The translations under genes and the position numbers were made by a program. Below, piece after piece: positions 127-64,000 of a DNA stretch of 64,000 nucleotides. Within the stretch, counting starts at the first letter, position 1, and each line of letters opens with the position of its first letter. Source of the DNA: Rhodothermales bacterium (GTDB taxonomy: Bacteria; Bacteroidota; Rhodothermia; Rhodothermales; Bin80); the NCBI GenBank assembly GCA_965215475.1, contig OZ244061.1, positions 764,563-828,562 of the forward strand, in the 5' to 3' direction. The notes under the pieces are model-generated. The model worked only from the letters and a program-made list of their open reading frames with translations. It did no database searches and was not told the DNA's origin.

Positions 127-2099
127 TTAGCAAGCCTCTATATCATTGTAATCACGATAAAATGCACGGGTTGTGTCTGTATCTTCATCTGAAATAGAAA
201 AGTCTTCATCGCCGAGTGAATTAAGGTTAACATATAGATGGTTCGCATCTAAGCAGTCCATCAACACACGCTTAGCATCATTCAAAGAAAGGTTAACAAA
301 TTCATCTTCGTCAAAAGAATCCATGTTGAAATCATAACGAAGAAAACCCATTTTCTGCATATCGACCTTAATGGACAATAATGTGGAGTGCTTTCTTGCC
401 GATTCAATTTGATCAGCAAAAACTGAGTTGGAAGCCGCGAGTTCGGCATAAACAAATGACCCACCTCCTTTCCATTCAACTTTCTCAGAAACGCCACCTT
501 GTTCGCCTCCAATGACTTTTTTCAAGCGAGTCTTCGTTATCTCCTCAATATAATCCATCTGTTCGATAGCAATCCATTGACGGCCCATCTTGTGTGCAAC
601 AGCAGCCGTAGTACCCGACCCTGCGAAGAAGTCCATCACAATGTCACCTGGATCAGTTGTAATTTCGATAATGCGGCATAAAGTTTCTTCAGGCTTTGGG
701 AACGTAAAAGATTGCTTACCCATAAGTGCTTTAACTTGCAGTGTTCCTCGTTCAGAATTTACCAACTTATCAGCCCAAACAGATCGAACCATTTTACTGG
801 TTTTTCGATACTTTTCAAAAATTCTAAACTGACCATCTCTTTTAGGCCTTGCTAATATTTTATTGATGTTCTCCCTTGATTTTTTCACTCCCCATCGCCA
901 CACAGTTTGAATTTCTTGTGACTTTGCAGGCATTACACGTACCCAGCCATCTATTTCATTAAGGCTTACTTTATGCAAACCATTTTCATCAGAATTATGG
1001 GGATCCACATAAAAAGGATAGACAAGATTTGGGCGATTGCCTTCGTGAAAAGTAGTATTTCTATTCCTCAATTCACGTAGTTCAAAACCACCAAATTCAT
1101 CTGAATAAGGAAATTTTTTAGCAGGATTATTAATCCAATTGAGTATATAACTCTCACTTTTGGCATAACAGAGGATATATTCATGCATATTTGCAATGCC
1201 ACCATAGTCTCTACCTGCAGGATTGTTTACGACAACTACGCATTCAATAAACTTACCGCCCTTCATTACCTCATCCATGAGAACTTTTAAATAGGCAAAT
1301 TCGTTTCTGTCGCAATGAACAAAAATGAAGCCATCTCCAGAGAGCAGTTGTTTGGCTACTTCAAGCCGATTTCGCATAAATGTAAGCCATGTAGAGTGAT
1401 TGAATCGGTCATTGTACCGAAATCCATCATTCCCAGTATTGTAAGGTGGGTCAATGTAAATCAGTTTTACTTTTCCCGCATAACGAAGCTTTAGTGAGTG
1501 AAGGGCTAACAGGTTATTGCCCTTGATCAACAAATTGTCTTCATTACGTATTTTGCCAACTGACAGACGATTTACCCCCCCCCCATTTTTTCTGAAGCAG
1601 CACTCCAACGCTCCCATCCTGTTAACACCTTTGGCTCAAACAGCCTCGTAATGTCATCGGGGGAGAGAGTAGTATTCCAAAACACTTCCTCCCTGCCTCT
1701 ATCTTCCTTGGTCATTCCACCTTCTAGTACGCAGTCTTTGTATGGCCATGTAAGTACTACATTGCGTAAGTGACTCAAAAAATTACCATGCTGATCTACC
1801 AAGCCAATTCGATTCTTGAAAGCAGTATAACTGTCTGGGAGAAAGGTCTTGTTTGAAATAAAATCCCGAAATTTAACCTTGTCGAAAACTAACGTTCCAG
1901 CAACTTCAACAAAAAAATGTGCCTTGATTGCTTCCGACTGTATCAGTAATTCCAGAAGATGCGCATCCATTCTCAAAGCTGATTCAATCACCACATTTTT
2001 TAGAATAGTTCCGTCTGAAATGAACTCTTCTTCGGACGCTAACAATTCAGCCAGATCGTCAAGAAGGTTTTGCCCGTTCAAAGAAAGATCCTCTCCCAT
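127..2099 (-). CDS. mod: Type III restriction-modification DNA methyltransferase (Mod), frameshifted at a G10 tract (putative phase-OFF)
   Basis: ORF 1572..2099 has the Mod N-terminus (DSYTAFKNRIGL, WPYKDCVLEGG). ORF 127..1617 has IYIDPPYNTG and DFFAGSGTT (beta-class m6A MTase). Adding one G at 1575-1584 joins them into 657 aa. Confidence 0.9.
1570..1591 (-). repeat. Homopolymer cassette AAAAAAT-G10-TAAAT in mod
   Basis: C10 at 1575-1584 on + strand. The coding strand reads ATG GGG GGG GGG TAA; G11 would read GTA AAT CGT in frame. Confidence 0.9.
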
Positions 2100-2109
2100 G
2101 TGTACCAGG

Positions 2110-2481
2110 TTAACTTGTTATTCGAGATTTCAATTGATTCCATGTAAATGCGGCAGCTGGATGCATGGATGCCCCTAACCCACCGCCAGCAACCCCAAGT
2201 AATCCCCCTACAAATACGGTTAATACCGGAACAAGTACACCAGGGATATCACCAAACATCGCTCCCATAATTACCATAAGGCGCGAGGTTGGCTCAGGAG
2301 CAACCATAAATGCATGAGCCACAAACAGGGCCCAGCTCAAGGCAACGGCAATCCCTCCGGCAAGCCATGCACGTCCGGGGCAATAGATCCCTGCAGCAAT
2401 GCCACCTCCTATACTCCATACCCATCCAAAAAATAGATGGAGCAAGAATGCAACCCCTAATCCTATCAATATTCGGATCAT
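2110..2481 (-). CDS. Small integral membrane protein, unknown function
   Basis: 123 aa, Gly-rich hydrophobic helices; start overlaps the aminotransferase stop. Confidence 0.75.
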   Translation of the reverse strand: MIRILIGLGVAFLLHLFFGWVWSIGGGIAAGIYCPGRAWLAGGIAVALSWALFVAHAFMVAPEPTSRLMVIMGAMFGDIPGVLVPVLTVFVGGLLGVAGGGLGASMHPAAAFTWNQLKSRITS

Positions 2482-3653
2482 CGGCCATTTTTGTATTTCT
2501 GAACAAATCTCTGAATCCGGCGAGTGGCCTCCGCTACTTTGTCATCCGCGGTCGCATAGGAGCAGCGCACGAACCCCGCCCCACTTGGGCCAAACGCATC
2601 CCCCGGCACCACCGCAACCGATTCTTCCCGAATCAATCTCTCTGCGAACTCCTCCGAAGTCAGTCCAGTGGACCGAATATCCGGAAAACAATAGAATGCT
2701 CCCTCGGGCTCAAAAGTTGGGAGCCCTGCCGCCCGCAACCCATCTACAATCATACGCCTACGACGATCATATGCCTGACGCATTCGCTCCACCTCCGAAG
2801 CGCAATCCCGGATTGCAGCCAAGGCTCCATACTGGGCTATAGTTGGAGCACTCATGATCATGTACTGATGGACTTTATAGAGCCCCTCATATATTGATGC
2901 AGGAGCAATCGCATAACCAAGTCTCCATCCTGTCATGGCGTAAGCTTTAGAGAATCCTCCCAGAAGAATGCTGCGCTCACGCAAAGATTGAACCGACCAG
3001 GCACTCGCATGCCCTGTCCGTTTCGTATCCCCATAGATGAGTTGATCATAGATCTCATCCGAGATCAGAACCAGGTTGTGCGCTTCCGCTATGGCAGCAA
3101 TTTCCTCAAGGGTTTCCCGTCTGAGGACGGCACCAGTTGGATTATTCGGATAACCAATGAAGATCATCTTGGTCCGAGATGTGATTCTGCTGGATATATC
3201 CTCTGCCGTCACCTCGAAATTTGTTTCCGAACGTGTTGGGACATAAACAACCTTCCCATGAGCAAATCTCGCAACCGGGCCATACGACACAAAGCATGGC
3301 TCAGGAATCAGAACTTCATCCCCCGGGCTCAAGAGTGCAAGCATCGACAATTGCATTGCTTCACTGGCACCAATGGTGATCAGAATCTGATCTGCCTCTA
3401 CCTGATATCCGTATAGATGAAACAGGTGCTCCGCAATTGCCTCACGCAGTTCAATCAATCCAGCATTCGAAGTGTAACCTGTTTTTCCCAATGCCAACGA
3501 AGCCACCGCTTCGTCAATCACGGATCGTGGACTCACGAAATCTGGTTCCCCTATTCCCAGTGAAATCACATCGTCCATGGACGCTGCAATGTCGAAAAAT
3601 CGGCGAATACCACTTGGAGGGATGGATTGAATGTGGGGGGCAAGCAGTGACAT
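2478..3653 (-). CDS. PLP-dependent aminotransferase class I/II
   Basis: SLGIGEPDF, YPNNPTG, SDEIY, GFSKAYAMTGWRLG. Confidence 0.95.
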   Translation of the reverse strand: MSLLAPHIQSIPPSGIRRFFDIAASMDDVISLGIGEPDFVSPRSVIDEAVASLALGKTGYTSNAGLIELREAIAEHLFHLYGYQVEADQILITIGASEAMQLSMLALLSPGDEVLIPEPCFVSYGPVARFAHGKVVYVPTRSETNFEVTAEDISSRITSRTKMIFIGYPNNPTGAVLRRETLEEIAAIAEAHNLVLISDEIYDQLIYGDTKRTGHASAWSVQSLRERSILLGGFSKAYAMTGWRLGYAIAPASIYEGLYKVHQYMIMSAPTIAQYGALAAIRDCASEVERMRQAYDRRRRMIVDGLRAAGLPTFEPEGAFYCFPDIRSTGLTSEEFAERLIREESVAVVPGDAFGPSGAGFVRCSYATADDKVAEATRRIQRFVQKYKNGR

Positions 3654-3655
3654 TC

Positions 3656-5188: not shown

Positions 5189-5343
5189 GATGGTAGGCTA
5201 AATCTATGAGGATGGAGCAGGAATAGACGCCTCTCTGTGCCCCAGAAAAGCTACTGATGTCACAAAGCAGTACCCGGTTGAGCACACGGTCTCTGGTTCA
5301 AAAAACGTGTCCGTCATCGTCTACAGGCTACTTAATCCATGAC

Positions 5344-8816: not shown

Positions 8817-8829
8817 TTTCTTAGGTAAA

Positions 8830-9360: not shown

Positions 9361-9367
9361 TTGATCC

Positions 9368-16615: not shown

Positions 16616-16619
16616 TCCA

Positions 16620-19161: not shown

Positions 19162-22100
19162 TCACTGCACCCGTATCACGTGTCCAGTGTAGACTGAGGA
19201 TTTCTGATCTTCCAGAGAGGTTGCAATCATCCGATACAAGTAGGGACCCGAGGGCAGATCAAGGTCGGTTAGTTCTAGTTCATGGCGCCATCCTGCGCTC
19301 AGTTGTACTGCCGGGATGGCCATCACGCGCCGCCCTGTCAGGTCAAGAACCTCCACCTGCACCTGTGCTGCCCATGGAAGATCAAACACCAGATGCGTGG
19401 ACCGATAAAACGGATTCGGATAATTCGGATACACCCGAAACTCCTGCGGCACCTTTTGGTTGGCTTCGGTCTGTGTCGGCGATAGAACCTCTATGGTAAA
19501 CTTCAAACTATCTTGCGCCCCATTTTGATCGGTGGCCGTGTAGGTCATCGGGACGGGCTGTATCACCTCTGCGGGCATGCCATAGATCGTGCGGGTCTGT
19601 GCATTGTATCTGAGCCCTAACGGAAAATCCAGTAGCGTCAAGGTATATGCAATGGGAGGTACACCGTCTGAGACCTCAGGGAGCACCCATGGCGCAATCG
19701 TCACACCCCTATCATAGGTCCGATCGGCAATGGTGCCAGTAAAAGCCATCTGATAAATCTCCAGACTGAACGTCTGCTCAATGCGCGCTCCCAAGCGATC
19801 TTGTGCGGTGTAGGTATAGGTTACAGCCTCAGCGACTTCTGAGGGCACCCCGCTTAACGTCCGCGTCTGCGTATCAAAGGTGAGCCCGACCGGTAGCTCA
19901 GGTGTCAAGGTATAGCTGTACGGCCCAATCCCCCCGATCGCGGCTGGAAGCACTTGATTGGTGAGTGGAATCTGGACGGGGTACCTCTGGTCGACAACAG
20001 CTTCTGCAAACGTCAAGGACGGAGGCACTTTGACCTCTATGGTAAAGGTCTGCGAAGCCGACTGGGTATTGGCATCGGTCACCGTATAGGTAAAGATGGT
20101 TGGGGCCATCACTTCGGTGGGCGTTCCGCTCAGCGTCCGTGCATCAAACTTCAGACCTTTGGGCACCTCTGGGGTGAGGGTATAGCTGTAGGGGCGTGTT
20201 CCATATCTGGCTTCGGGAAGCTCAAGATCTTTGATGTCTACTCCTACGAGATAGGACTGGTTGGACACCGTCTGGGTAAAGGATAAGCTTGGCACATCGT
20301 TGTCCACGATGGTGAGCGTAAAGACATATGGATTTGCGAGATTATCGCCGGTCAAGGTGATGATGATGGTTTCGTTGGGCTCGTCATCAAGATCATCAAT
20401 GATTGTGATGCGTAGATCGGCCGTGATCGCGTAGTCTACGTCTTGGGTCGCCGTCCCCGAGAGCGTGTAACTCACCGATGGGCGACCGGTCACTTGGACC
20501 TGATAGGTGCCGGCTGTTTCATCAATGCGGGCCGATGCTCTGGTAAATCTGACCTGGGGTTGCGTCGCAGCCTTGGTCACTACATTGGACGGCAGGCTTT
20601 CGCCAACACGGTTGATGGCACTGACCCGGTAGTGACGGTCAGAATGATGATCCGTGTACGTGGTGCTCGTTTGACGCTCACCAAGTGGGTTCCAAGGCGG
20701 CTGCCCATCCGCGGACCACTGGACCTGATAGCCTGTAATGGCCTCGCCCCCGTTATCGGCCGGCGCTTGCCACGACAGAACAACTGGCAGAGTTGTAGTG
20801 GCGGTTAACTCCAGCGGATCACTGGGAATCGCTGGCGTGGCACGATCCACCGTCGTGCCATCAGCCACATTGGAGGGTGGACTGCTTCCCTCGGCGTTGA
20901 TGGCACGGGTCCTGTAATAGCGCGTCGTGCCCGGAGACAGTCCACGATCAATAAACATCGTCAAGGTGGACTCGGAGTCATCTTCAAGATTCGCCCAACT
21001 AGTTCCATCGGCCGACCACTCAACGCGATATCCCGTAATAGCCGCGCCCCCGTTATCGGTCGGAGCGGTCCATGAGACAACAAGAATCGTCCGCCCACTT
21101 GGGGTGACACTCAGTGCAGTCGGCGCATCAGGGGCCATGATGGCTTCTGTAGTCGCATTCGCTGGAGTAGATGCGCTGGTGCTCTCGCCCACCGAGTTAC
21201 TCACATAGACCCGGTAATGCCGCGTGGTAGAAGGATTGAGGCCCGTATCGCTGTAGGTGCGATCCGGGCCCGAATGCGCAGGAATGGCATTTGTCCACGG
21301 AGCATTCCCGTCAGCCGACCACTGAACGCGGTAGCCCGTGATGTCGGCGCCCCCGGTGTTGGTGGGCGCATCCCAAGAGAGAGCAATCGCAGTACGCCCG
21401 TTGGCCGTCGCACTGAGATTTCCAGGGGGACCGGGCCTCGTCGCCGTCACCGCAGCGGTGGTGGCATCGTCGGTCGCAGATGCGCTGGCACTCTCGCCCA
21501 CCGAGTTACTGGCATAGACCCGGTAATGCCGCCTTGTAGATGGATCAAGCCCCGTATCGCTGTAGGTGCGATCCGTGCCCGAATGCGCAGGATCGACATT
21601 TGTCCACAGAGCATTCCCGTCGGCCGACCACTGAACGCGATAGCTACTAATACGTGCACCCCCGTCACTGGTCGGGAGATCCCATTTCAAGTTAATCGTA
21701 GTACGCCCTGACGCGGTGGCGACAAGGTTTTGCGGGGCCCCGGGCCTCACCGCCGCAGCGGTCGTCGCATCATCGGTGTTGGACGGCAAACTCTCCCCCT
21801 GCGCATTGATGGCATACACCCGGTAATGGCGCGTGGCACCGCCCAAAAGCCCCGTATCGCTGTAGGTCGTGCTCGTTGATTCGGTGTCATCCATCACATC
21901 CGCCCAGCCCGCAGTTCCATCCGACGACCACTCAATGTGGTACCCCGTGATGGCCGTGCCCCCAGTGTTGGCTGGCGCCGTCCACGACAGATCAATCGTC
22001 GTTGGCCCATTGGCGGACGCATTCAAACCCGTTGGATCACTGGGAATCGTATTGGTACTGCCATCTACCGTCGTCGCACTCGCTGGAATGGATGCTGTCC

Positions 22101-25100
22101 CCGTGTTTGTCGTATTGATGGCGCTCACCCGGTAATGGCGCGTGGACCCTGCACTAAGGCCGCGATCAATAAAGGTGGTGGCCGTACTTTCGGTGTCATC
22201 TTCGAGATCCGCCCAGTTACTCGTGCCATCGGCCGACCACTCTATCTTGTACCCACTCACCGCACTGCCTCCATTGTTGGACGGCGCCGTCCACGAAAGC
22301 ACAATCAAGGTGCGCCCACTGGCCGTGGCCGTCAAACTGGTTGGATCGCTGGGAACCGTATTCGTGCTGCCATCCACGGTGGTCCCCATCCCGGCGGTAG
22401 ACGCGGCACCTGTATTCACAGAGTTGATCGCACTGATCTGATAGTGCCGCGTGACTCCCGCCGAAAGCCCGCGATGGATATGGGTGGTTTGTGTTGATCG
22501 GGTATTGGTGGCCAGAGGGTTGTAATTGGTGCCTCCATCGGTCGACACATCGATCTTATAGCCGGTAATGGCTTCGCCCCCATTGTCGGCCGGCGCCGTC
22601 CATGAGACGATCAGTATCGTGCGTCCACTTGGGGTGACACTTACTGCAGTCGGCGCATCAGGGGCCATGATCGCTTCGGTGGTGGCACTCGTTGAACTTG
22701 ACGCCGTTGCACTCTCGCCCTGTGAGTTGCTGGCATATACCTGATAATCATAGCGCGTGTTTGGACTTCGCCCCGTATGACTGTAGGTCCGCGTCGTGCC
22801 CATATGCGCAGGATCAACATCACTCCAGCTACTGCCTTGATCGTCCGACCACTGAACGCGGTAGCCCGTGATATCGGCGCCCCCGGTGTTGGTGGGCGCA
22901 TCCCAAGAGAGAGTAATCGCAGTGCGTCCGTTGGCCGTGGCACTGAGATTTCCAGGGGGACTAGGCACGGTCGCCGCCATGGCAGCGGTGGTGGCATCGT
23001 CGGTGTTGGACGGCAAACTCTCCCCCTGCGCATTGATGGCATACACCCGGTAATGGCGCGTGGCACCGCCCAAAAGCCCCGTATCGCTGTAGGTCGTGCT
23101 CGTTGATTCGGTGTCATCTATCACATCCGCCCAGCCCGCAGTTCCATCCGACGACCACTCAATGTGGTACCCCGTGATGGCCGTGCCCCCAGTGTTGGCT
23201 GGCGCCGTCCACGACAGCACAATCGTCGTTGGCCCATTGGCGGACGCATTCAAACCCGTTGGATCACTGGAAATCGTATTGGTACTGCCATCTACCGTCG
23301 TCGCACTCGCTGGAATGGATGCTGTCCCCGTGTTTGTCGTATTGATGGCGCTCACCCGGTAATGGCGCGTGGACCCTGCACTAAGGCCGCGATCAATAAA
23401 GGTGGTGGCCGTACTTTCGGTGTCATCTTCGAGATCCGCCCAGTTACTCGTGCCATCGGCCGACCACTCTATCTTGTACCCACTCACCGCACTGCCTCCA
23501 TTGTTGGACGGCGCCGTCCACGTAAGCACAATCAAGGTGCGCCCACTGGCCGTGGCCGTCAAACTGGTTGGATCGCTGGGAACCGTATTCGTGCTGCCAT
23601 CCACGGTGGTGCCCATCCCGGCGGTAGACGCGGCGCCTGTATTCACAGAGTTGATCGCACTGATCTGATAATGCCGCGTGACTCCCGCCGAAAGCCCGCG
23701 ATGGATATGGGTGGTTTGTGTTGATCGGGTATTGGTGACCAGAGGGTTGTAATTGGTGCCTCCATCGGTCGACACATCGATCTTATAGCCGGTAATGGCT
23801 TCGCCCCCATTGTCGGACGGCGCCGTCCATGAGACGATCAGTATCGTGCGTCCACTTGGGGTGACACTTACTGCAGTCGGCGCATCAGGGGCCATGATCG
23901 CTTCGGTGGTGACACTCGTTGAACTTGACGCCGTTGCACTCTCGCCCTGTGAGTTGCTGGCATATACCTGATAATCATAGCGCGTGTTTGGACTTCGCCC
24001 CGTATGACTGTAGGTCCGCGTCGTGCCCGTATGCGCAGGATCAACATCACTCCAGCTACTGCCTTGATCGTCCGACCACTGAACGCGGTAGCCCGTGATA
24101 TCGGCGCCCCCGGTGTTGGTGGGCGCATCCCAAGAGAGAGTAATCGCAGTGCGTCCGTTGGCCGTGGCACTGAGATTTCCAGGGGGACCAGGCACGGTGT
24201 TCATCCCCGCTGTGACGACATTGGACCAGGTGCCGGTGGTGCCCGCCGAATTGATTGCACCGACCCGGTACTGACGCACGGTGGTGAGCGTTTGACTGGT
24301 ATGGGCGTAGGTCACCCCATCATCCATAGTGTCATCTTCAACATCCGTCCAATTGCTACCCCCGTCCGTGGATTGTTCAATCTCATAACCCGTGATGACA
24401 CTACACTTGTCGCTCACCGCTGGCGCGGTCCACGATAAATTAAAGGTGCTGGTGCCATCACTGGTGGCGGTCAGCCCCGTCGGGGCAGCCGGAACGGCGA
24501 CGGTGCCCGTGGTCGCATAGGCTTCGTCAGACAGGGCACTATCTTCAAACTCATCATCTTCCATATAGACCCGATACCCATAGCAGGTATTGGTATCCAG
24601 ACCCGTATCGGTGATCATGAGGGTGGAAGCACCAACTTGACTATCAAGAGTCCATGAATCTCCGTCATTGTTACTGCGAAATACATAGTAGTTCATCACC
24701 GTTCGTCCACTGGGAAGATCTGTCGGGGCGACCCAGGCTACATCAATGGATGTTCCCGTATTCTTGGTCGCCGTCACCCCGGTGGGGATTCCCGTCCCGC
24801 TACGGGCCACCGCGGTTACCGTGACGACCGCCGACGGGGGGCTCTCAACATCATCCGCATTGACTACTTTGATGCGGTAATAAAACTCTTCCCCCGGCGT
24901 GAGCAGACTACTGACATGGCGCTCGGCCGGAGAATCCGTGTTGTTGGTTGGCTCGGCCAGCACCTCCCAGCTGGTGTTGTCCGTTGACCATTCCAGAATA
25001 TGCTTTTTGAAGGCCGCACCCCCAAGACTGGTCGCTGGAGAGGTATCCCATTGAAGCGTAATGGCATGAAAGGCTGTCGTCGTTACTCGTAGACTGGTCG

Positions 25101-27939
25101 GTGCAGCCGGCACGGTCACCGATGCCTGCAAGACACTGGACGCTGCACCCGCGCCACGTGCATTGATCGCGCGAACCCGGTACCAGCGTGTATCCCCCGC
25201 CGAGAGCCCTGTATGAGAATAGGTGGTCCCCGTCTGACTGTCCACCAACTCGGTAAAGGTCGTTCCGTCTTCAGAGACCTCAATCTTGTAGCCTGTAATC
25301 GCGCTCCCCCAGGTCTGCGTCGGTGCGGTCCAAGACAGTGCAATGCTCGTGGCCGCCGGGGTGGAGGTGAGACTAGTCGGCGCAGCGGGTGCGCCAAAGG
25401 TGAGCGAAGCGGGGATGGACGGATCTCTTAAAACAAAGCCTTGGGTATAAACGCCCACACGATAGCTATAAGTGGTGCCTGCAGTCAAGCCATCACTATC
25501 GGTATATGTCAATGTAGTGGCAGACAATGTGGTGGAAAGTGCTCGCCAGCTGTCTCCGCTATTGGCCGTCCGATACACTTCAAAAAATTGCACTGGATCG
25601 GATGACAAATCCGTTGGGGCCGTCCACGAAACCGTCACCTCCGTCGCCGATGTCTGCGATGCGGTCACCCCCGTAGGAATGCCCGTTGAAGTGAATGCCT
25701 TTGCAGTCACGTTTCGGGCCACAGACGCAGGGCCCGCCCCCGCTGAATTCACCGCGCTCACCCGGTAGTAAAACGTCTCACCGGGCGTCAACAAACGGCT
25801 GTAGTGGTCATATCTTGGTATAAGGCCGGCAGCGACGCCCGTGGCCAACACCTCCCATGTTGAATTATCGGTAGACCATTCAACGGTGTAGCTAGTAATA
25901 GGCGTGCTTCCCGTGCTACTCGGTGGATCTATTCCTACATAGACATATTGATACTGTTGACTACCAATTATTGAAATCGTAGGAGCGCCGGGCGGCTCCC
26001 CGATGGTAATGCTCTGAACTGCGGTCGGTTGGCCTGTGCCCCGTGCATTGATGGCACGGACCCGGTAATGACGCACATCGCCGGCCGAGAGTCCGGTGTG
26101 CGAATACGTAGTCCCCGTCTGACTGGCGACCAGCTCGGTAAAGGTGTCGCCATCGGTAGAGACCTCAATCTGATAGCCGGTGACGGCGCTCCCCCAGGTC
26201 TGCGTCGGGGCGGTCCAAGACAGATCAATGCTGGTGCGCCCTGAGCCAACCGTCGCTGTAAACGAGGTCGGCACGCTGGGCGCACCAACGGTCAGCGAAT
26301 CGGGCGGCGAAAGATCGTACTCAAAGGACGCATCGGTTTGAACGGCCACACGATAGCCGTAGGTATTCCCAACCGTCAACCCGTCATCATCAACATACGA
26401 GGATGCTGTGTGGCTGATACTGCCGTCAAGTTGCTCCCAAAGCTCTCCGCTATTGGCCGTCCGATACACCTGATAGAAGGCAATTCCATCTGTAGTACCA
26501 TCCGCATCCGGCACATCCGTTGGGGCCGTCCACGACACTGTGACTTCACCGGCCGCCGTCTGCAGTGCCCGCACATCAGTGGGCACGCCCGCACCACTGG
26601 CACGAGAAACCGCCACCGCACTAGCAGACGTAGAAGGCGGGCTCGCCCCCGCGGAATTGACCGCACGCACCCGGTAGTAAAACGTCTCGCCTACGGTCAG
26701 CAAACTGCTAAAATGTTCATAGTATCCAGTATTGCCTGCAGCGGGCTGGTCCACAACCTCCCAGTTGGTATCATCGGTAGACCATTCGATGATATGGCTG
26801 GTAATCGGCGGCGTGATCGTAGGTGTCCGATCCCAATTCAGAACGATATTATGAAGCCGGACGCCACCGGCTGTTAATCCCGTTGGCGCGGCGGGCGGGA
26901 GCTGCGTAGTGAAGGCATCGGACCACGCGCCAAAGCCCGCCGAATTCTTTGCCCGCACCTGGTACTGACGGCTCGTCGCAATCGTCTGCCCTGTATGCGC
27001 ATACATCACCGCGTCATCGCCCGTGTCGGCTGCGACATCACTCCACGTATCGCTGCTACTGGCGCGCTCCTGGATCTGATAGCCCGTGATCGCGCTGCAC
27101 TTGTCAGATGCCGGCGCTGTCCAACTCAAATTGAAGGTCGTCCCCGTGCCCGTGGCCGTCAAGCCCGTTGGGGCCGCAGGAGTGGTGACCGTCCCCGTCG
27201 TCGCGTAGGCGGGGTCGGAGAGGTGGCTTTTTCTATAAGATGGCACATAATCCGCGATAACCCGATACCCGTAGCAGGTATTCGCACTCAAGCCCGTGTT
27301 GGTGAATGCTTGATTAGAAGCCCCGATGTTATTCTCTATTATAGTCCACAAATCACCATCATTTGTGGTGCGCAAGAGTTGATAAAATGATACGGATTGA
27401 TTATCTGGAATATCGGTCGCATCCGTCCACGAGACCTCAATGGAGGTGCCATCACTTTGCAGGGTTGCCGTCACCCCAGTGATAACGCCCCATCCACTGC
27501 GTGCCACCGCGGTTGCGGTGACGACATCCGACGGTGGACTCACCTCATCATTGGTATTGACGACCTTAAATCGGTAGTAATAGTCGTTTCCCGGCGTCAG
27601 TAGATTGCTGTAGTGATTAAAACCGCTTGTAAATTGGGCAGTACTCTCCCCCGCCACCGACCAGGTGCTGTTGTCTGAAGACCATTCAAAGATATACTTT
27701 GAAAATCCTGCGCCGCCTAAGGAACCGCTTGTAGCGACAGTAAAATTCAGACTCGTTTGATGAAATGCACTATATGCGACAGTCAGACCGGTGGGCTTAT
27801 CTGGAGGGGCGCTGCTGGGCAGTCTGGTTCGAAGAGACGGATCGGCTACCGCGAAGGTTGTAGATGCGGTTTCGCTTGGATCTACCGAATTCCAAGTTGT
27901 ATGCTCACTGCCGTCCGCAGACGCCACGCCATCCTCCAC
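19162..27939 (-). CDS. Giant secreted surface protein: ~two dozen fibronectin type III domains, Calx-beta-like and Ig-like domains, T9SS C-terminal domain
   Basis: Repeated LSWTAP..GG..ITGY...Y.V.AIN FN3 motifs; DDEPNETIIITL; LP.GL.FD..TLSG.P; NYPNPF...LPSGPY sorting domain. This ORF lacks a signal peptide, which lies out of frame upstream. Confidence 0.93.
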   Translation of the reverse strand: MEDGVASADGSEHTTWNSVDPSETASTTFAVADPSLRTRLPSSAPPDKPTGLTVAYSAFHQTSLNFTVATSGSLGGAGFSKYIFEWSSDNSTWSVAGESTAQFTSGFNHYSNLLTPGNDYYYRFKVVNTNDEVSPPSDVVTATAVARSGWGVITGVTATLQSDGTSIEVSWTDATDIPDNQSVSFYQLLRTTNDGDLWTIIENNIGASNQAFTNTGLSANTCYGYRVIADYVPSYRKSHLSDPAYATTGTVTTPAAPTGLTATGTGTTFNLSWTAPASDKCSAITGYQIQERASSSDTWSDVAADTGDDAVMYAHTGQTIATSRQYQVRAKNSAGFGAWSDAFTTQLPPAAPTGLTAGGVRLHNIVLNWDRTPTITPPITSHIIEWSTDDTNWEVVDQPAAGNTGYYEHFSSLLTVGETFYYRVRAVNSAGASPPSTSASAVAVSRASGAGVPTDVRALQTAAGEVTVSWTAPTDVPDADGTTDGIAFYQVYRTANSGELWEQLDGSISHTASSYVDDDGLTVGNTYGYRVAVQTDASFEYDLSPPDSLTVGAPSVPTSFTATVGSGRTSIDLSWTAPTQTWGSAVTGYQIEVSTDGDTFTELVASQTGTTYSHTGLSAGDVRHYRVRAINARGTGQPTAVQSITIGEPPGAPTISIIGSQQYQYVYVGIDPPSSTGSTPITSYTVEWSTDNSTWEVLATGVAAGLIPRYDHYSRLLTPGETFYYRVSAVNSAGAGPASVARNVTAKAFTSTGIPTGVTASQTSATEVTVSWTAPTDLSSDPVQFFEVYRTANSGDSWRALSTTLSATTLTYTDSDGLTAGTTYSYRVGVYTQGFVLRDPSIPASLTFGAPAAPTSLTSTPAATSIALSWTAPTQTWGSAITGYKIEVSEDGTTFTELVDSQTGTTYSHTGLSAGDTRWYRVRAINARGAGAASSVLQASVTVPAAPTSLRVTTTAFHAITLQWDTSPATSLGGAAFKKHILEWSTDNTSWEVLAEPTNNTDSPAERHVSSLLTPGEEFYYRIKVVNADDVESPPSAVVTVTAVARSGTGIPTGVTATKNTGTSIDVAWVAPTDLPSGRTVMNYYVFRSNNDGDSWTLDSQVGASTLMITDTGLDTNTCYGYRVYMEDDEFEDSALSDEAYATTGTVAVPAAPTGLTATSDGTSTFNLSWTAPAVSDKCSVITGYEIEQSTDGGSNWTDVEDDTMDDGVTYAHTSQTLTTVRQYRVGAINSAGTTGTWSNVVTAGMNTVPGPPGNLSATANGRTAITLSWDAPTNTGGADITGYRVQWSDDQGSSWSDVDPAHTGTTRTYSHTGRSPNTRYDYQVYASNSQGESATASSSTSVTTEAIMAPDAPTAVSVTPSGRTILIVSWTAPSDNGGEAITGYKIDVSTDGGTNYNPLVTNTRSTQTTHIHRGLSAGVTRHYQISAINSVNTGAASTAGMGTTVDGSTNTVPSDPTSLTATASGRTLIVLTWTAPSNNGGSAVSGYKIEWSADGTSNWADLEDDTESTATTFIDRGLSAGSTRHYRVSAINTTNTGTASIPASATTVDGSTNTISSDPTGLNASANGPTTIVLSWTAPANTGGTAITGYHIEWSSDGTAGWADVIDDTESTSTTYSDTGLLGGATRHYRVYAINAQGESLPSNTDDATTAAMAATVPSPPGNLSATANGRTAITLSWDAPTNTGGADITGYRVQWSDDQGSSWSDVDPAHMGTTRTYSHTGRSPNTRYDYQVYASNSQGESATASSSTSATTEAIMAPDAPTAVSVTPSGRTILIVSWTAPADNGGEAITGYKIDVSTDGGTNYNPLATNTRSTQTTHIHRGLSAGVTRHYQISAINSVNTGAASTAGMGTTVDGSTNTVPSDPTSLTATASGRTLIVLSWTAPSNNGGSAVSGYKIEWSADGTSNWADLEDDTESTATTFIDRGLSAGSTRHYRVSAINTTNTGTASIPASATTVDGSTNTIPSDPTGLNASANGPTTIDLSWTAPANTGGTAITGYHIEWSSDGTAGWADVMDDTESTSTTYSDTGLLGGATRHYRVYAINAQGESLPSNTDDATTAAAVRPGAPQNLVATASGRTTINLKWDLPTSDGGARISSYRVQWSADGNALWTNVDPAHSGTDRTYSDTGLDPSTRRHYRVYASNSVGESASASATDDATTAAVTATRPGPPGNLSATANGRTAIALSWDAPTNTGGADITGYRVQWSADGNAPWTNAIPAHSGPDRTYSDTGLNPSTTRHYRVYVSNSVGESTSASTPANATTEAIMAPDAPTALSVTPSGRTILVVSWTAPTDNGGAAITGYRVEWSADGTSWANLEDDSESTLTMFIDRGLSPGTTRYYRTRAINAEGSSPPSNVADGTTVDRATPAIPSDPLELTATTTLPVVLSWQAPADNGGEAITGYQVQWSADGQPPWNPLGERQTSTTYTDHHSDRHYRVSAINRVGESLPSNVVTKAATQPQVRFTRASARIDETAGTYQVQVTGRPSVSYTLSGTATQDVDYAITADLRITIIDDLDDEPNETIIITLTGDNLANPYVFTLTIVDNDVPSLSFTQTVSNQSYLVGVDIKDLELPEARYGTRPYSYTLTPEVPKGLKFDARTLSGTPTEVMAPTIFTYTVTDANTQSASQTFTIEVKVPPSLTFAEAVVDQRYPVQIPLTNQVLPAAIGGIGPYSYTLTPELPVGLTFDTQTRTLSGVPSEVAEAVTYTYTAQDRLGARIEQTFSLEIYQMAFTGTIADRTYDRGVTIAPWVLPEVSDGVPPIAYTLTLLDFPLGLRYNAQTRTIYGMPAEVIQPVPMTYTATDQNGAQDSLKFTIEVLSPTQTEANQKVPQEFRVYPNYPNPFYRSTHLVFDLPWAAQVQVEVLDLTGRRVMAIPAVQLSAGWRHELELTDLDLPSGPYLYRMIATSLEDQKSSVYTGHVIRVQ
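21760..24198. repeat. Near-identical internal tandem duplication, 1227-bp period (409 aa, 4 FN3 domains)
   Basis: cggtgttggacggc at 21774 and 23001; antisense ORFs in the track repeat at a 1227-bp offset; ends approximate. Confidence 0.9.
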
Positions 27940-27952
27940 CGTGGCGGGTTGT

Positions 27953-28117
27953 TTATTTAAAAAATGGGGGGGGGGGGGGGGGTGAATTCAACTCCACAGC
28001 CTCCCCCATCTGCGCAGAGGTCGTCTCTACACCAAACAGGACCACACACCACAAAATCACATGCATCATGCAGGATCGGAAAAGGGCACGCGTGCCCGCA
28101 AATTCGTTAGGTCTCAT
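27953..28117 (-). CDS. Out-of-frame signal-peptide segment of the giant FN3 gene
   Basis: MRPNEFAGTRALFRSCMMHVILWCVVLFGVETTSAQMGEAVELNSPPPPPPFFK*. With C16 instead of C17 it reads PPPPPHFLNKQPATVEDG into the 2925-aa ORF. Confidence 0.85.
   Translation of the reverse strand: MRPNEFAGTRALFRSCMMHVILWCVVLFGVETTSAQMGEAVELNSPPPPPPFFK
27959..27987 (-). repeat. Homopolymer cassette ATTCA-C17-ATTTTTT (out of frame)
   Basis: G17 at 27966-27982 on + strand. Confidence 0.9.
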
Positions 28118-28118
28118 C

Positions 28119-28139
28119 AAAAAATGGGGGGGGGTGAAT
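28119..28139 (-). repeat. Homopolymer cassette ATTCA-C9-ATTTTTT at the extreme 5' end of the FN3 gene
   Basis: G9 at 28126-28134. ATG at 28146 reads MFHSPPPIF*; C10 would read MFHSPPPHFLMRPNE into the signal peptide. Confidence 0.85.
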
Positions 28140-28548
28140 GGAACATCGTTCAGGGTAAGTCAAGTATTCACAAGGAAAAATATGGTTTGTTCAGACAAAT
28201 ACAGACAAAGATAAAAAAAAGATCCAAGTTCTTGTAAATAGCCTAACATCAGATGAAATTCAGCGCAGCGGTATCATTCAACCAGAACTGTCCTACCATA
28301 AGATCCTGTATCTTGTAAGGGACTGCGAACAAAGCATACGTTAAGTTCAACCCATAATATTCACGACGATTGAGTTTTAAGTTATTTTCACCAAACTGGA
28401 GCTTTTTTTCTGAGGTCCTGCTATACTGTTTCTACGCCCATTCCAGTGGGGGGGCCACGGATAGAACGTACGGTTTTTATCCTGAGATGTATGGAGTGGG
28501 TGCCGTTCTTTTTTCAGAAATTTATTTCCCCCATTTGGGGAACCCTTT

Positions 28549-56056: not shown

Positions 56057-56202
56057 GAGTTTTATTTTTGATATCCGTTCAAGACGCTGACCGCAAAATA
56101 TACAGCCTGTGAGAGAATTTACCTGCTTTTCTGCTAGAATTGTACTTGATGGAGAACACCCTCGTATAAAACCGTTTAAGTTGCTTGTTGTAGATTAAAT
56201 CA

Positions 56203-57790: not shown

Positions 57791-57803
57791 ATCTACTTGA
57801 ACC

Positions 57804-58925: not shown

Positions 58926-60688
58926 ATGGTTTCGGCTCGCTCAATTAAACTCTCAATCTCACTGAGTCCCTTGTTCCAGAATTCTGGATCTTGTAAATCA
59001 ATTCCCAAGCGACCTACAAGGATATGTGGCCAATCGGATCCACCAGATTTCATCAACTCAACATATCGATCTGGAAATTCGTCAGGAGATTCAAGGTATC
59101 GTTTATATAAAGCCATCACCAATAGTTCTCCAAACGCATACGCGTACACATAGCCTGGGGTATGCAAAAAATGCGGGATATAACTCCACCAACTTTGATA
59201 CTGCTCTGTAAGCTCTATACTCTTGCCATACATTGCAGATTGAGTGGATATCCAGTGCTTGGCAAATTTATCTGTAGACAATTCCCCTTCTTCACGCCGT
59301 GAAGTGTGGATTGCATCCTCAAATCGATTCATCGTTACTTGACGAAAGACGGTTGCCATGGTATCATCAATCTTGCTCACTAGCAACGTCAGGACATTAC
59401 GAGGATTCGGTTCTTGTGCCAACAAGCGCTGGAACGTCAGCATCTCGCCAAATACGGAAGCCGTCTCTGCCGTGGTCAACGGTGTCGAGGCCTGCAAATA
59501 CCCCTGCTCTCTTGAAAGGAATTGATGCACTCCGTGACCAAGCTCATGTGCAAGGGTTTGTACATCTCGTGCACGTCCTGTATAGTTCAACAGTACATAG
59601 GGATGCACACTAGGGACTGCCCCATGGCTGAACGCTCCGCCTTGCTTGCCTTTCCTTACTGGTGCATCAATCCACTTTTCTTCAAAGAAACGTTCCGCAA
59701 CATCCGCCAAAAGGGGATGAAAGCTTCGGTAACTTTCCAGTGTTATTTGTTTTGCTTCATTCCATGAGTAATGGGTATCGCTCTCCCCCACCGGTGCATA
59801 TCGATCATAATCATAGAGCGGGTTTAGCCCGAGAATTTTCGCCTTCAGTTCATAAAAACGAGCGACCAAATCATAGCGACTGATGACTGAATGTATGAGA
59901 GCATCAGCCGTCTCATCTGTGATTTCATTCCCTAGGTTACGGGATTTTAGCCAATGTGGTAATCCTCGCATGCGATCATTTGCCGCCTTATCCGCAAGGA
60001 GAGTATTGAAGATATATGTAAGTGTATGCTCATTCGAGATCAGTCCTTCAGAAAAACTATCCGCTGCCTCTTTACGAATTCCCCGATCATGAGCATGAAG
60101 CTTGGTCAGCAGAATCTCTTGAGGAAGAGATTCTCCCTGAAATGTGAAACGCATTCTGCTGATTGTTTCCGTAAAGAACCGTATCCAGGCAGATCTCCCG
60201 GTTACTTGTGTCTCTGAAAGAATCCTTTCCTCAGGCTCCGACAGTGTATACTCCGTGAGTAGTCTCTCACATTCGAGAAAATGACGATACCCAGCAAGTT
60301 CGTCATCTTCCATAAGCATCCTAGCCTGATCCTCCTCCACTCTCATCCATTCCAGCCCAAAGAATAGCAGACTTTTGCTAATCTGCGTATACAACTCACG
60401 AACATGCTGTAAAAGAGCTCCACGTTCTGGATCATCCGTCGCCGTAACCCACGAGAGATAGGCATAGGTCATCGCTCGACCAATCCTCTCCTGAATCAAC
60501 TCATACTTACTGAGTGCGCTCCTCAGCTGAACTGCATCCAGATCTGCTATCTTGCCTCTCCATGACTTGTTAAACCCTTCAGCTTCACGCGTGATCTCAT
60601 TCAGATCGTTTTGTACATCAGACTCGCTCAGATATAGATGCGTCAGATCCCAATTAACCTTTTCTGCGCCTGTCGTTTGTGTATCCAT
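58901..60688 (-). CDS. pepF: M3B oligoendopeptidase F
   Basis: TLAHELGH, AETAS, WSYIPHF, YVYAYAFG. Confidence 0.93.
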   Translation of the reverse strand: MDTQTTGAEKVNWDLTHLYLSESDVQNDLNEITREAEGFNKSWRGKIADLDAVQLRSALSKYELIQERIGRAMTYAYLSWVTATDDPERGALLQHVRELYTQISKSLLFFGLEWMRVEEDQARMLMEDDELAGYRHFLECERLLTEYTLSEPEERILSETQVTGRSAWIRFFTETISRMRFTFQGESLPQEILLTKLHAHDRGIRKEAADSFSEGLISNEHTLTYIFNTLLADKAANDRMRGLPHWLKSRNLGNEITDETADALIHSVISRYDLVARFYELKAKILGLNPLYDYDRYAPVGESDTHYSWNEAKQITLESYRSFHPLLADVAERFFEEKWIDAPVRKGKQGGAFSHGAVPSVHPYVLLNYTGRARDVQTLAHELGHGVHQFLSREQGYLQASTPLTTAETASVFGEMLTFQRLLAQEPNPRNVLTLLVSKIDDTMATVFRQVTMNRFEDAIHTSRREEGELSTDKFAKHWISTQSAMYGKSIELTEQYQSWWSYIPHFLHTPGYVYAYAFGELLVMALYKRYLESPDEFPDRYVELMKSGGSDWPHILVGRLGIDLQDPEFWNKGLSEIESLIERAETIYAASCRD

Positions 60689-60771
60689 TACATCATCAAA
60701 ATTAGGAGCCGCATAGAACCTTGATTCCTTTAAATTGTTGTAGCGTGCCCCAAAACTAATTCACTATTCTG

Positions 60772-61092
60772 ATGCCTTATCAATCAATTGATTCCATTCA
60801 TGATTTCGATGCAGTCCTGAAACAATCCAATTCCGAAACGGTCGCAGTCTTCAAGCATAGTTCCACTTGTGATCTATCTGCTACGGCCAAGAGCGAAATG
60901 GTGAACGTCAAGCTCCCTGTCTTTGAGCTTGTGGTTCAGACGGCACGTCCACTATCCAATCATATAGAAGCTCATTTTGGAATTCGACATGAATCCCCAC
61001 AAGTGATCTTGATCTCTCAGGGCAAGCCCATCTATAATGCATCTCACCTAGCTGTGACTGCAGACAGTATCCACGCAGCGGCTACGCAGTAG
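60772..61092 (+). CDS. ytxJ: Bacillithiol system monothiol redox protein, YtxJ family
   Basis: FKHSSTC, IRHESPQ, YNASH. Confidence 0.9.
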   Translation: MPYQSIDSIHDFDAVLKQSNSETVAVFKHSSTCDLSATAKSEMVNVKLPVFELVVQTARPLSNHIEAHFGIRHESPQVILISQGKPIYNASHLAVTADSIHAAATQ

Positions 61093-61150
61093 CGGCCTGA
61101 AAGCCGGGGGAAAAGGTTCTACTGATTTAGGGATCCTATTTCTCACTAAA

Positions 61151-61507
61151 TTATTCGGCAGATGCCTCGTCACCCATACCTGGGGCCGGGCTGAAGAATT
61201 CGGCAAACTTGTTTGTTTTTTTTGCAAATTCTCCGGGATCCTCGGATGGCTCTCTCGTGCGAGTAACATTCGGCCAGAGTTTGGAATATTCGGTATTTAT
61301 TTTGAGCCATCTGGAATCGGGATCATCCTCGATCTCTGATTTGATTGCCTCGACCGGGCATTCGGGTTCGCATACTCCGCAATCAATACATTCATCTGGG
61401 TGAATCACCAACATATTTTCACCCTCATAAAAGCAGTCGACCGGACAAACTTCTACGCAATCCATGTATTTGCAGCGGATGCAAGGATCCGTCACGATAT
61501 AGGTCAT
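61151..61507 (-). CDS. fdxA: 7Fe ferredoxin (FdxA type)
   Basis: [18 protein letters not shown] and [12 protein letters not shown]. Confidence 0.93.
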
Positions 61508-61843
61508 GAAACTCTATATTAACAGCTTTCTGATTCAACCATTAATTTGCGATTAAACGTTCATGTCGCTGAGTTACCTCATATTGGTGCCTATTTTTCT
61601 ACTCAAACAAACTCTTTCCTTTGCCTTATCTTCAATTGCCTTCACTAACTCAGTTTTGTTCGCCAAGTTAAGCCATGCGGAGTGATTTCCTCTAAATTGT
61701 CTGCGTCTTCATTTGGTTTTCTCACCCCAAAGAGACTGTTTCCGACCATATTTTCTTACGGATACTGACTCTTAATGACAGTGATTTCATCCCCTCACAA
61801 AATCTAGGTTTGTGGTTCCCACTTCTGATTCTGCTACAAAAAA

Positions 61844-62196
61844 TCAATCAATGTGGGAAAACTGAATCCCCTCATGATCCTTCGGCATAACAACTCCTAA
61901 CTCGCCAGAATGAACCATAGAAACCGTACCACTGCTATCAGTGCGACCAATACCTGGATAGCCAATAACAACTCCTAACTCGCCAGAATGAACCATAGAA
62001 ACAGTGCCTGCATGTTCTCTCTGAAGTACTTGTGCCTCTCCATCTTTTCCAATGCTGTGCCGATATGATCCGGCATAAATAAACATGGCATCAGATACCT
62101 GCACACAGTGGATAGATGTTGATGGCCGTGCCCGAAGTAATACATTAAAGAATATCCATAATCTTTAATGTATTGCACGATTCGTTTTAAATCCAC
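61844..62196 (-). pseudogene. Degraded gene fragment, possibly a metallophosphoesterase C-terminus, with internal 38-bp duplication
   Basis: YFGHGHQH then, after a frame change, FIYAGSY; GTVSMVHSGELGVV occurs twice (61887-61924, 61965-62002). Confidence 0.4.
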
Positions 62197-62276
62197 ACCT
62201 TACCCGTCCTGCTTGCATGCGCTCCTTCTCGTCCAGAGATATATCCATCCAGAAGAAAAATCATAATAGAATCTTT

Positions 62277-63673
62277 GGTTCTTCCACTTTTTTAGTGGGT
62301 TGAACGATTTTGATAGCCTACTGGATATAAATCCAGACCGCCAAGATAGAAGTATATCGCATTCGCAAACCGCTCGGGATTTCGGAATCCTCGTGCACGA
62401 ACTTTGATCGTTTTAATCCGACTATTGATCCTCTCAGCGGGTCCATTACTCACCCGGAGAACAATGGCATTGATGATTCCCCAGAGATGTTTTTTGATCG
62501 TCTTGGAGACGTTTCTCATGGGATCCAACCGACTTCTGTCAAGCCATCCTACCCATCGCTTCCAGCCTTTGCGTGCCCAAGTACGACTCGTGTAATTCCA
62601 CAGCTTCAAGTTCATTTCCTTCATCGCCCAAGCACGTGCTGTTTTCAACGTACTGTTCTTTCATGGATCCAATCGTTTCTTTTGTTTTGCCGACATATTC
62701 TTCCGGTTGGTGAGCCAGTCATACTTCGTCCCAACCAGATCCAGAATGCCTTCTCGCTTCAAGACACGATGCTCTTGTTTACGAACGGTATCGAGTCCCC
62801 CCTGAATATAGTTCGTCACATGAAAAGGATCAAACGCAATCTTTTTTTGAGCATCTGCTACACACGCTTGGGTCGCACGAATCTATGCAGGCCACAGATC
62901 CATACTCACGCTCTTGAGGGTCTGGAGTTGTTCAGATGAACAGGTCGTATCATAGGACTTTAAACTCTCAATCTTGCGACCCTGCGCCACAAACAACACC
63001 CTACCCTTGGTCGGATCCGACACGATCGTTACATAGTTATGCCCTTTCTTGGAGGCGATCTCATCCACACAGATATGCTCCACATTCTCCTTCTCTTTGC
63101 GGGCGTTCCCACGCTTCACAGCACGATCCATAATGTGCGATATCATGGTCCAACTCACCTCCAGACGATCGGCCACCGCCGCTATAGTACTTGCATCGTG
63201 TAACCAATCAATCACGCGTGCCTCAAACTGGGTGGTGAATTGGACTTGGGCATCCGCCCAAGGTGCCGATAGGGTACTGACCCCATGCTCTGGGCAGTTT
63301 ACGCGTGGGACCTTCGCTACAACCTTCGTACGGTAGTCGCAAATATTCGTATGGCGCCATGTACGCGTACGATGATCGTAACCAGGACACTCCTTCCCAC
63401 AATGTGGACAGTGTAGCTTCACATCGTCCGGAAGCGTTACGTGGATCTTCGCCCATGATTCGGTGGTGTCTTGCTCAATTTCCGATACCACCCAAGGGGA
63501 TTTGACGCCGATAAGGTGGTTGATATCTGTGATTTTTAAGGCCATGTCAATAGGGTGATAGAATGATGGGTTGTAAACACCTAATATACTATATCAATCC
63601 TTTCTAAACCTCATTCAAATCCGATCGTTTACACTTCTTTTCAGGCTTTACCCACTTAAAAAACGGAAGCCCC
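62277..63673 (-). mobile_element. ISL3-family insertion sequence, complete ends, inactivated transposase
   Basis: IRs GGTTCTTCCACTTTTTTAGTGGGT and GGGGCTTCCGTTTTTTAAGTGGGT; 8-bp TSD GAATCTTT at 62269-62276 and 63674-63681. Confidence 0.92.
62292..63545 (-). pseudogene. ISL3 transposase (internal stop at 62883 plus a frameshift)
   Basis: CPHCG, VPRVNCPEHG, VDE, SMDLWPA*, AFDPFHV, SNGPAERIN, RARGFRN. Confidence 0.9.
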
Positions 63674-63796
63674 GAATCTTTTTTGGTTTAGCGGGAATTA
63701 CTGAACTGCTGTGAGTTTTGACCAAAGACGTTCAAAAATTAGGGGACATAATCCAAGGAAAGGAACTTTACAACCTCTTTTCGTTGAAAACCGTTC

Positions 63797-64000
63797 ATGT
63801 TCATTTCAACCGAAGTACTTATGTCCATTCTCAGTTTTCTTCTATTGCTTTCTGTGGTTCCGAACTCGGCAAGTGACTTGTTTGCAACCTCTTCCATTTT
63901 ACCCCCCCCCCATTTTTCGGGTGATCGCGCCATAGGGACGCTCCCTGATGGATTTTCCGAACTTGAGTCTGCCAAGAAGACGTCTCCCTTAGGGGGCGGA
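63797..64000 (+). CDS. 5' end of a secreted protein with an in-frame C10 cassette after its signal peptide (runs off the window)
   Basis: MFISTEVLMSILSFLLLLSVVPNSASDLFATSSILPPPHFSGDRAIG..., 68 codons open to the edge; not in the ORF track. Confidence 0.65.
   Translation, partial: MFISTEVLMSILSFLLLLSVVPNSASDLFATSSILPPPHFSGDRAIGTLPDGFSELESAKKTSPLGGG
63896..63917 (+). repeat. Homopolymer cassette ATTTTA-C10-ATTTTT (in frame)
   Basis: C10 at 63902-63911. Confidence 0.9.

Follow-up and report, generated by a model that had tools for sequence, protein, structure and literature searches.

Homopolymeric contingency loci, which vary through slipped-strand mispairing, are well described in Neisseria, Haemophilus, Campylobacter and Helicobacter, and homopolymer phase variation is commonly regarded as depending on run length and nothing else. 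The subject here is a set of poly-C/G tracts in a Rhodothermales bacterium, taken up from a 64-kb stretch of its genome (the window, G000:C1:764563-828562; the genome, G000, is a single 3.71-Mb contig of 47.4% G+C), together with a short flank, ATTTTT, that stands directly 3' of the C run. As in the loci already described, G/C runs of at least 9 nt lie in the 5' part of surface-protein genes and of restriction-modification (R-M) genes, shifts in their length change the reading frame, long runs form a bimodal excess, and in-frame and out-of-frame states occur together in one genome. Unlike those loci, which are not described with a fixed flank, a third to a half of the long tracts carry one polar flank, in this genus and not in neighbouring genera. 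The tracts themselves are thus of the known slipped-strand kind, and the polar flank is the new part.

Three other systems are close enough to be compared. Phasevarions, governed by phase-variable type III mod genes, were reportedly described by Srikhanta and colleagues; judged from the genes alone, the R-M locus described below is similar in having a type III mod with a repeat tract inside its open reading frame (ORF) and a res gene beside it, but differs in having two tandem mods, each with its own tract (C10 and C12), a single res, and a homopolymer that lies between the protein domains. In repair-deficient yeast, mutation rises where homopolymeric runs are clustered, and a neighbouring homopolymer is reported to alter slippage or local mutation; the context here is likewise a neighbouring run, in the form of a polar, conserved flank of bacterial loci. 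Finally, elements of the IS110 family of insertion sequences (IS) have been described with a bridge RNA (PMC11208160). An IS of this genome resembles them: it encodes a DEDD transposase, lacks terminal inverted repeats, has ~330 nt of non-coding sequence at its left end and inserts in a sequence-specific manner. It is unlike the known elements in that its apparent target is a homopolymeric C tract, namely the phase-variable tracts themselves. In the literature on homopolymer contingency loci (e.g. PMC5084427, PMC6321876), titles and abstract openings mention neither a conserved flank of such loci nor an IS aimed at homopolymers, which is weak evidence.

The window contains exactly four C/G runs of at least 8 nt, all of them at least 9 nt long (C10, G17, G9 and C10 on the + strand), and a C8 pattern has 18 overlapping matches, where 100 shuffles give 2.4 on average and never more than 11. 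Viewed on the C strand, the four runs are directly followed by ATTTTTT, ATTTTTT, ATTTTTT and ATTTTT and preceded by GATTTA, AATTCA, CATTCA and ATTTTA, respectively. The first-pass annotation, which was made from the letters of the window alone, had reported near-identical flanks at every long run, and both sides are as it gave them.

Across the genome, C runs of 5 to 8 nt number 2144, 465, 82 and 13, a drop of roughly 5-fold per base, and from 9 nt upwards the counts are flat or rising (11, 12, 3, 9 and so on, the longest run being 29), with 43 C and 43 G runs making up 86 in total. ATTTTT stands directly 3' of the C run at 37 of these 86, compared with 15/15140 runs of length 4, 5/4345 of length 5, 1/924 of length 6, 1/167 of length 7 and 0/22 of length 8; the sole case of length 7 is a tract interrupted by an IS. 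As the background of the hexamer is 0.0007 per position, the association of the flank with long tracts is far above chance, chance is excluded, and the flanks of long runs are not random genome-wide, as the window had led the first-pass annotation to suppose. The mirror flank, AAAAAT directly 5' of the C run, occurs at none of the 86 runs.

Dereplication by clustering of 200-nt flanks gives 62 downstream families, of which 20 carry the exact hexamer and 9 more a near-variant, defined as a T run of at least 5 within 2 nt of the tract, or ATTTTC; these read GATTTTTT, AATTTTT, TATTTTT, TTTTTT, ATAAT7 or ATTTTC. Among the 20 exact families the spacer is A in every one, conservation ends at +7, and information is near zero beyond +7 and -6. 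On the 5' side the one signal is a weak AA..TG (T at -2 in 13/20 families, G at -1 in 12/20), and the TT[TC]A proposed earlier as a general 5' flank is present at only 11 of the 37 sites, so that this part of the proposal does not hold in general. The T run is 5 nt long at 18 of the 37 sites and 6 nt at the other 19, with nothing else seen.

The genes that carry the exact motif, assigned from open frames and translation with their identities confirmed by Pfam, place C on the coding strand in 13 of the 20 families and G in 7. The C-coding hosts are giant secreted proteins, in which the tract comes after the signal peptide, lipoproteins that have it before or inside that peptide (e.g. M-K-L-PPP-IFLAVLAVFFLLGC), an N6_N4 methylase, a Helicase_C/MZB protein and a surface protein in which the tract is internal. 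The G-coding hosts comprise the type III mod, two Type ISP-like enzymes (Pfam domains Mrr_cat_2, ResIII, ISP_coupler and Type_ISP_C), a related methylase/Type_ISP_C gene, a Calx-beta/LapA protein and two genes whose start ATG is formed by the flank and the first G, namely an N6_N4 methylase reading M-GGGG-GGDLGGNLVIHGDNLHALKSL and a DUF4397/Por_Secre_tail protein reading M-GGGG-SSLLILFLFLAPDTFAQ, in which the signal peptide follows the M-GGGG. Near-variant flanks occur in addition in a C-5 methylase and an EcoRI-type methylase (Pfam). The tracts therefore sit in contingency genes: giants with fn3 domains and type IX secretion system (T9SS) sorting signals, lipoproteins, type III mod, other methylases, Type ISP enzymes and a defence-type helicase. 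The earlier description of the hosts as non-homologous stands for mod, which differs in family from the others, but not for the surface proteins of the window, which are both fn3/He_PIG proteins.

All three codon phases are represented at the spacer T when genes are read on the G strand (K-N-G, K-M-G and K-W-G), hence no peptide is conserved. Cumulative GC skew puts the origin of replication at ~2.13 Mb and the terminus at ~0.22 Mb; relative to these, 19 sites have the C run on the leading and 18 on the lagging strand, showing no bias. As the polarity of the motif tracks neither transcription nor replication, it belongs to the sequence itself, and a signal oriented by transcription or by replication is excluded by the two coding orientations and the 19 to 18 split. 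The claim that the flank acts at the level of DNA, and not as a peptide or ribosomal signal, is borne out by the use of either strand for coding, the three codon phases, the unrelated Pfam families and the restriction to one genus.

Returning to the window, the length of each tract sets the frame of its gene, with sites 1 to 3 (numbered along the window) out of frame and site 4 in frame (Table 1), and the frames are those read at first pass. At site 1, G10 brings in a TAA immediately past the tract in the frame of the ORF for the mod N-terminal domain, and the methylase ORF is in a different frame. The C17 of site 2 terminates a 55-aa signal-peptide ORF (27953-28120), which is out of frame with the 2925-aa ORF (19162-27939) that follows. 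At site 3, C9 begins 10 nt past an ATG and 5-8 nt ahead of the ATG/TTG of the signal-peptide ORF, and leads to a TGA after ATG-TTC-CAT-TCA-(CCC)3-ATT-TTT; C10 would join this frame to the signal-peptide ORF. The ORF of site 4 continues beyond the end of the window, and the protein has 8 fn3 stretches, He_PIG, Calx-beta and a weak Por_Secre_tail match (Pfam). Paralogues of the site-2 tract have C11 and C9, those of site 3 have C9 and C15, and those of site 4 have C9, C10 and C12.

Table 1. Positions of the tracts, flanks and host genes in the window (window coordinates, unless marked as genome), and a reference copy of the IS110-family element.
Feature	Position	Strand	Frame or remark
G10 tract (C10 on +), type III mod, between N-terminal and methylase domains (site 1)	1575..1584	-	out of frame; in frame at 3k+2
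ATTTTTT flank 3' of C run (AAAAAAT 5' of G run on coding strand)	1585..1591	+	
Type III mod split by tract: ORF 1572-2099 (TypeIII_RM_meth), ORF 127-1617 (N6_N4_Mtase)	127..2099	-	Pfam, ORFs
C17 tract on coding strand, directly past signal peptide of 2925-aa protein (site 2)	27966..27982	-	out of frame; in frame at 3k+1
ATTTTTT flank of C17 tract	27959..27965	-	
C9 tract in leader of giant gene (site 3): second in-ORF tract or leader tract	28126..28134	-	
ATTTTTT flank of C9 tract	28119..28125	-	
Giant surface-protein gene and leader: 20 fn3 stretches, He_PIG, signal peptide, two tracts	19162..28146	-	
C10 tract past signal peptide of 1517-aa fn3/He_PIG/Calx-beta protein with T9SS sorting domain (site 4)	63902..63911	+	in frame
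ATTTTT flank of site-4 C10 tract	63912..63917	+	
IS110-family copy	genome G000:C1:863660-865215		~15 further copies elsewhere

The leader of the giant gene holds two tracts 143 nt apart (27966-28134), a layout that recurs in its two paralogues and, in related form, in a fourth giant gene (genome 2648519/2648771); expression of the giant gene may need both leader tracts in phase. Adjoining the site-4 gene, a 220-aa ORF (window 62883-63545, - strand) looks by eye like the N-terminal part of an ISL3-type transposase.

Variation in length is seen well beyond the window. In the 11 paralogue families in which both flanks cluster, 9 differ in the length of the C run (11/17/9, 9/15, 11/13/12, 16/14/12, 12/10, 10/11/9 and 16/10 by family), whereas in each of the 8 motif families among the 11 all copies have a T run of one length, so a variable C run lies beside an invariant T run. 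The family termed D9 has two of its six copies in frame and four out. The first-pass annotation supposed a coordination of surface and methylome switching; the differences in length and frame from locus to locus look like independent stochastic switching. Given these mixed lengths and frames, the first reading of the sites as homopolymer phase-variation tracts is upheld: on sequence grounds the four sites are best classed as ordinary slipped-strand phase-variation tracts in contingency genes, among ~86 such runs genome-wide, and reversible switching of these genes is predicted from the variation in tract length. A mosaic leader is present at genome position 2485434, where the sequence is D9-like (..PTK) upstream of the tract and like that of another family, D17 (IFSGNPVIGTLPDGF), downstream of it, which suggests recombination at or near tracts. 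Separately, a 34-nt perfect palindrome lies between C11 and G10 at genome 3326527-3326581, and the same palindrome arm is found at four other places, after C runs or after IS right ends with a C run.

The limits of the motif were sought in 41 genomes, comprising G000, 23 congeneric species and 17 genomes of other genera. The pattern C9-ATTTTT is present in 18 of the 23 other congeners, with up to 50 matches per genome, and the reversed control pattern has one match in all 41 genomes. Of the runs of at least 9 nt in the other congeners, 217/632 carry the flank (0 to 58% per species), compared with 1/277 in the 17 genomes outside the genus. The sister genus, the only other genus of the family sampled, has 0/51, and two other tract-rich genomes have 0/36 and 0/39. 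A collection of 165 flanks from five genomes outside the genus is heterogeneous, with one that reads ATTTTTT. The motif is therefore restricted to the genus. A DNA search of the genus with the leader of the giant gene returned only the paralogues within G000 and matches of 23 to 70 nt that are mostly tract and flank; as the search revealed no DNA counterpart of this 5' region among the 23 congeners, the motif recurs there in species-specific sequence, and for the same reason the comparison of orthologues rests on mod.

The window mod has the type III N-terminal domain PF12564 (2e-24) and the N6_N4 methylase domain PF01555 (4e-47; Pfam). A second, tandem copy with both domains lies just upstream of the window at genome 762590-764527, and is split by a C12 tract with identical flanks. 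The two genes have a 739-bp 5' part in common at 96% identity, the remainders being without a match in that search, and the copy outside the window is followed, with a 4-nt overlap, by an 874-aa res ORF (ResIII at 9e-32), the single res, which lies downstream of both mods. Evidence from the sample itself comes from assembled contigs (Logan), with only the two contigs that cross a tract counted. A contig of run X1 crosses the tract of the window mod without a gap and reads C10, which confirms the assembly at this position, and at the tract of the second mod a contig of run X2, which derives from the same sample, reads C11 versus C12 in the assembly. For most combinations of run and tract no contig spans the mod tracts; these gaps possibly stem from paralogy, and nothing is drawn from them. 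Contigs of runs X1, X2 and X4 also join across 554 bp that the assembly holds at genome 761704-762259, near the 3' end of the R-M locus, a difference that is possibly an indel or a repeat variant.

In the mod loci of other species, at an overall identity of 71-79%, the A5-7 run and the T (the flank as read on the coding strand) are kept in 9 of 11, the tracts are G9 (six loci), G10, G11 and G16, and the bases directly outside the A run vary freely. Tract length thus differs among orthologues, as the first-pass annotation had expected of switching loci. One of the two tandem mod copies in congener G023 has A5-T-G4 in frame, reading M-K-N-G-V. Full-length homologues with 74-79% identity in the N-terminal domain, from records named Rhodobacteraceae, Halomonas, Pseudomonas and Thiolinea, have a different linker without K-N/M-G-G-G, of 20 versus 19 residues, and two further homologues with 78-84% identity do carry K-N-GGG(G). 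The copy with G4 and the same A run, together with the distant homologues that lack both, argues that the motif arose in place with no unit inserted; the comparison places the origin of the A run and the G run inside a variable linker in this lineage.

The IS110-family element introduced above is ~1.56 kb long (DEDD_Tnp_IS110, PF01548 at 7e-38), with ~16 copies in G000 and none in the window. Every full-length copy is bordered by C4-10 on the left and C7-29 on the right, and two copies lie inside tracts of known families (genome 1796705-1798564 and 3565748-3567632), at both of which the upstream flank and part of the C run stand on one side and the remaining C run, ATTTTT and the downstream flank on the other. 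The element therefore appears to home into poly-C tracts. A G7 run lies in its non-coding left end, as does a copy of the terminal 9-mer of the right end; the G7 run would suit a guide for a C-run target, making a bridge RNA putative, and Rfam gave no match on the element at E up to 1. Relatives of the transposase (E up to 1e-40) occur in 13/23 other congeners and in 0/17 genomes outside the genus. The right end abuts ATTTTT at 2 of 16 copies in G000 and other sequence at the remaining 14, indicating that the element aims at the C run, not at the flank. An origin of the flank from the IS is accordingly rejected, on those 14 right ends and on the lack of correlation between the element and motif counts. 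In a related strain (run X5), a contig at the flank of the mod tract (window 1583) continues into sequence that matches the terminal bases of the IS110 right end and not into the tract, followed by a short interrupted C run; this rearrangement is joined within a 6-nt identity of the flank and the IS end.

What the flank does, if anything, can be approached through several explanations, of which we favour, at about an even chance, a selected cis context that affects how a tract mutates or persists. One rival is that the flank is a by-product: frameshifts beside a hypermutable tract would be costless, because the tract compensates for them, so that A/T homopolymers drift in and then stay as a mutational attractor, without having been selected for any role, and local mutation near G runs may also be raised. 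Such a view would accommodate the length of the T run, which differs among distant copies with the frame compensated elsewhere (T5/T6 in D17, A5-7 in mod, T5-9 in congener G008), the two families with a T run but no A spacer, and the raised substitution rates around G repeats reported in a yeast paper (PMC4928981). It is nevertheless unlikely, as it does not readily yield the strict polarity (0/86 mirror flanks in G000, one reversed match in 41 genomes), the spacer A in 20/20 families, a T run of 5 or 6 in G000 that is invariant among recent paralogues with differing C, or tract-rich neighbouring genera without the flank (0/51, 0/36, 0/39). A similarly low probability is given to a recognised site, in which a genus-specific protein or guide RNA would bind A5-6-T-Gn for nicking, recombination, resetting of length or regulation. 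A polarity that ignores transcription and replication and a sharp genus limit do resemble a binding site, and the IS110-family copies, presumably RNA-guided and with G7 in the left end, recognise the tracts; but no candidate factor was found, the IS110 relative has no match in G007, G011 and G014 (12, 16 and 13 motif sites) and has 9 matches in G003 (1 site), its right ends meet ATTTTT so seldom, and a spacer that varies between 9 and 17 bases does not sit easily with a two-part site.

Quite improbable is a combination of coding convergence and deep paralogy, in which the A runs would be Lys codons of signal-peptide n-regions or an A-rich leader before the ATG, the T runs Phe/Ile codons opening hydrophobic regions, and the motif would have spread with families of leader sequence. 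The two G-coding genes that start at the flank ATG, a large family in G008 reading M-K-x-x-x-K-(N/M)-Gn, the lipoproteins, and the fn3/He_PIG content of many giants fit this explanation, whereas over the three phases the spacer is read as N, M or W, or as H, I or P, AAG and TTC never substitute for AAA and TTT within the run, seven unrelated R-M or defence genes carry the motif in a catalytic or linker region, on one strand or the other, and no peptide is common to both orientations. The portable cassette suggested at first pass, a unit of tract and flank inserted by a mobile or recombinational process, draws on the same 7 nt beside tracts in unrelated genes and on the D9/D17 mosaic leader joined at its tract. 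It is very hard to sustain and has been given up, because sharing stops at ~7 nt on the 3' side and a weak 6 nt on the 5' side, there are no repeats or target duplications around the unit, and in mod the in-frame A5-T-G4 intermediate and the linker length conserved against outgroups (20 versus 19 residues) speak for an origin in place. Single-contig assemblies often misjudge homopolymer length and many of the tracts are out of frame, yet an assembly or sequencing artefact has a negligible probability with the motif in 19/24 assemblies of the genus, complete and draft, and an X1 short-read contig reproducing C10 exactly. Further candidates are a hairpin formed by AAAAT...ATTTT arms (only 7 families), H-DNA from mirror repeats (~6 families), misalignment assisted by G.T wobble, stop-codon avoidance, and ectopic template switching with the A run as anchor; each leaves some of the features unexplained.

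The selected cis context is preferred to these because the flank is specific to tracts past the length threshold, tightly defined, held in a linker that is otherwise free to change, and polar. It would evolve in place beside a growing tract, in variable linkers and leaders, and would then be held while the surrounding sequence drifts, which points to a DNA-level context under constraint. An adjacent rigid A-tract of fixed polarity could alter the handling of slipped intermediates by polymerase or mismatch repair, and tracts with this neighbour would pass the expansion threshold, switch at a favourable rate, or be retained.

Several observations weigh against this interpretation. C4 to C6 runs followed by ATTTTT number 15, 5 and 1 compared with ~11, 3 and 0.7 expected, being neither depleted nor clearly enriched, which implies that the flank alone does not drive the expansion of short runs, and ~14 families of apparently genic tracts are without the motif, which is thus not required for a long tract. 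The independent families number fewer than 20, as many of the C-coding giants are alike in domain content and leader architecture. Five of the 23 congeners lack the motif, and several have long tracts but few motif sites. In G008, ~29 of the 40 sites examined (50 in total) look by eye like one family of secreted-protein paralogues, with a G-strand start codon within 25 nt of the T run and the tract after a Lys-rich n-region, so that high counts in some species are partly due to family expansion; six of the sites there are right ends of a related IS abutting such tracts and ~ten are other contexts, with T runs of 5 to 9, and the diversity of hosts in G000 indicates that family expansion is not the whole story. 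MutL was found in 41/41 genomes searched, above the cut-off in 39, in contrast to the repair-poor epsilonproteobacteria; a genus-specific loss of mismatch repair as the cause is rejected on this presence throughout, MutS not having been searched for. The polarity of A-tracts supplies a proposed structural rationale, and any effect of the flank on mutability or switching rate is putative.

A more far-reaching version of the cis context, which we regard as doubtful though worth stating, is that the flank would be a genus-specific address tag that licenses or tunes length change of a G/C tract in any gene and either orientation, through a factor or through A-tract geometry. Imported R-M genes would then become phase-variable once a linker acquires the tag, and the presumably RNA-guided IS110 element would home in on the tracts and could lock a gene off.

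The finding bears on a field in which length is generally taken to be the determinant of homopolymer switching, as noted at the outset. A polar flank across one genus, absent from tract-rich sister genera, points to a possible cis determinant of the origin or the switching rate of contingency loci. Were this the case, the set of phase-variable genes would be predictable from sequence, cis and trans control of simple-repeat mutability would be open to direct test by flank swaps, and the way in which newly imported R-M genes turn into stochastic switches would be shown as well. The IS110-type element would in turn offer a case from nature of a recombinase directed at hypermutable homopolymers.

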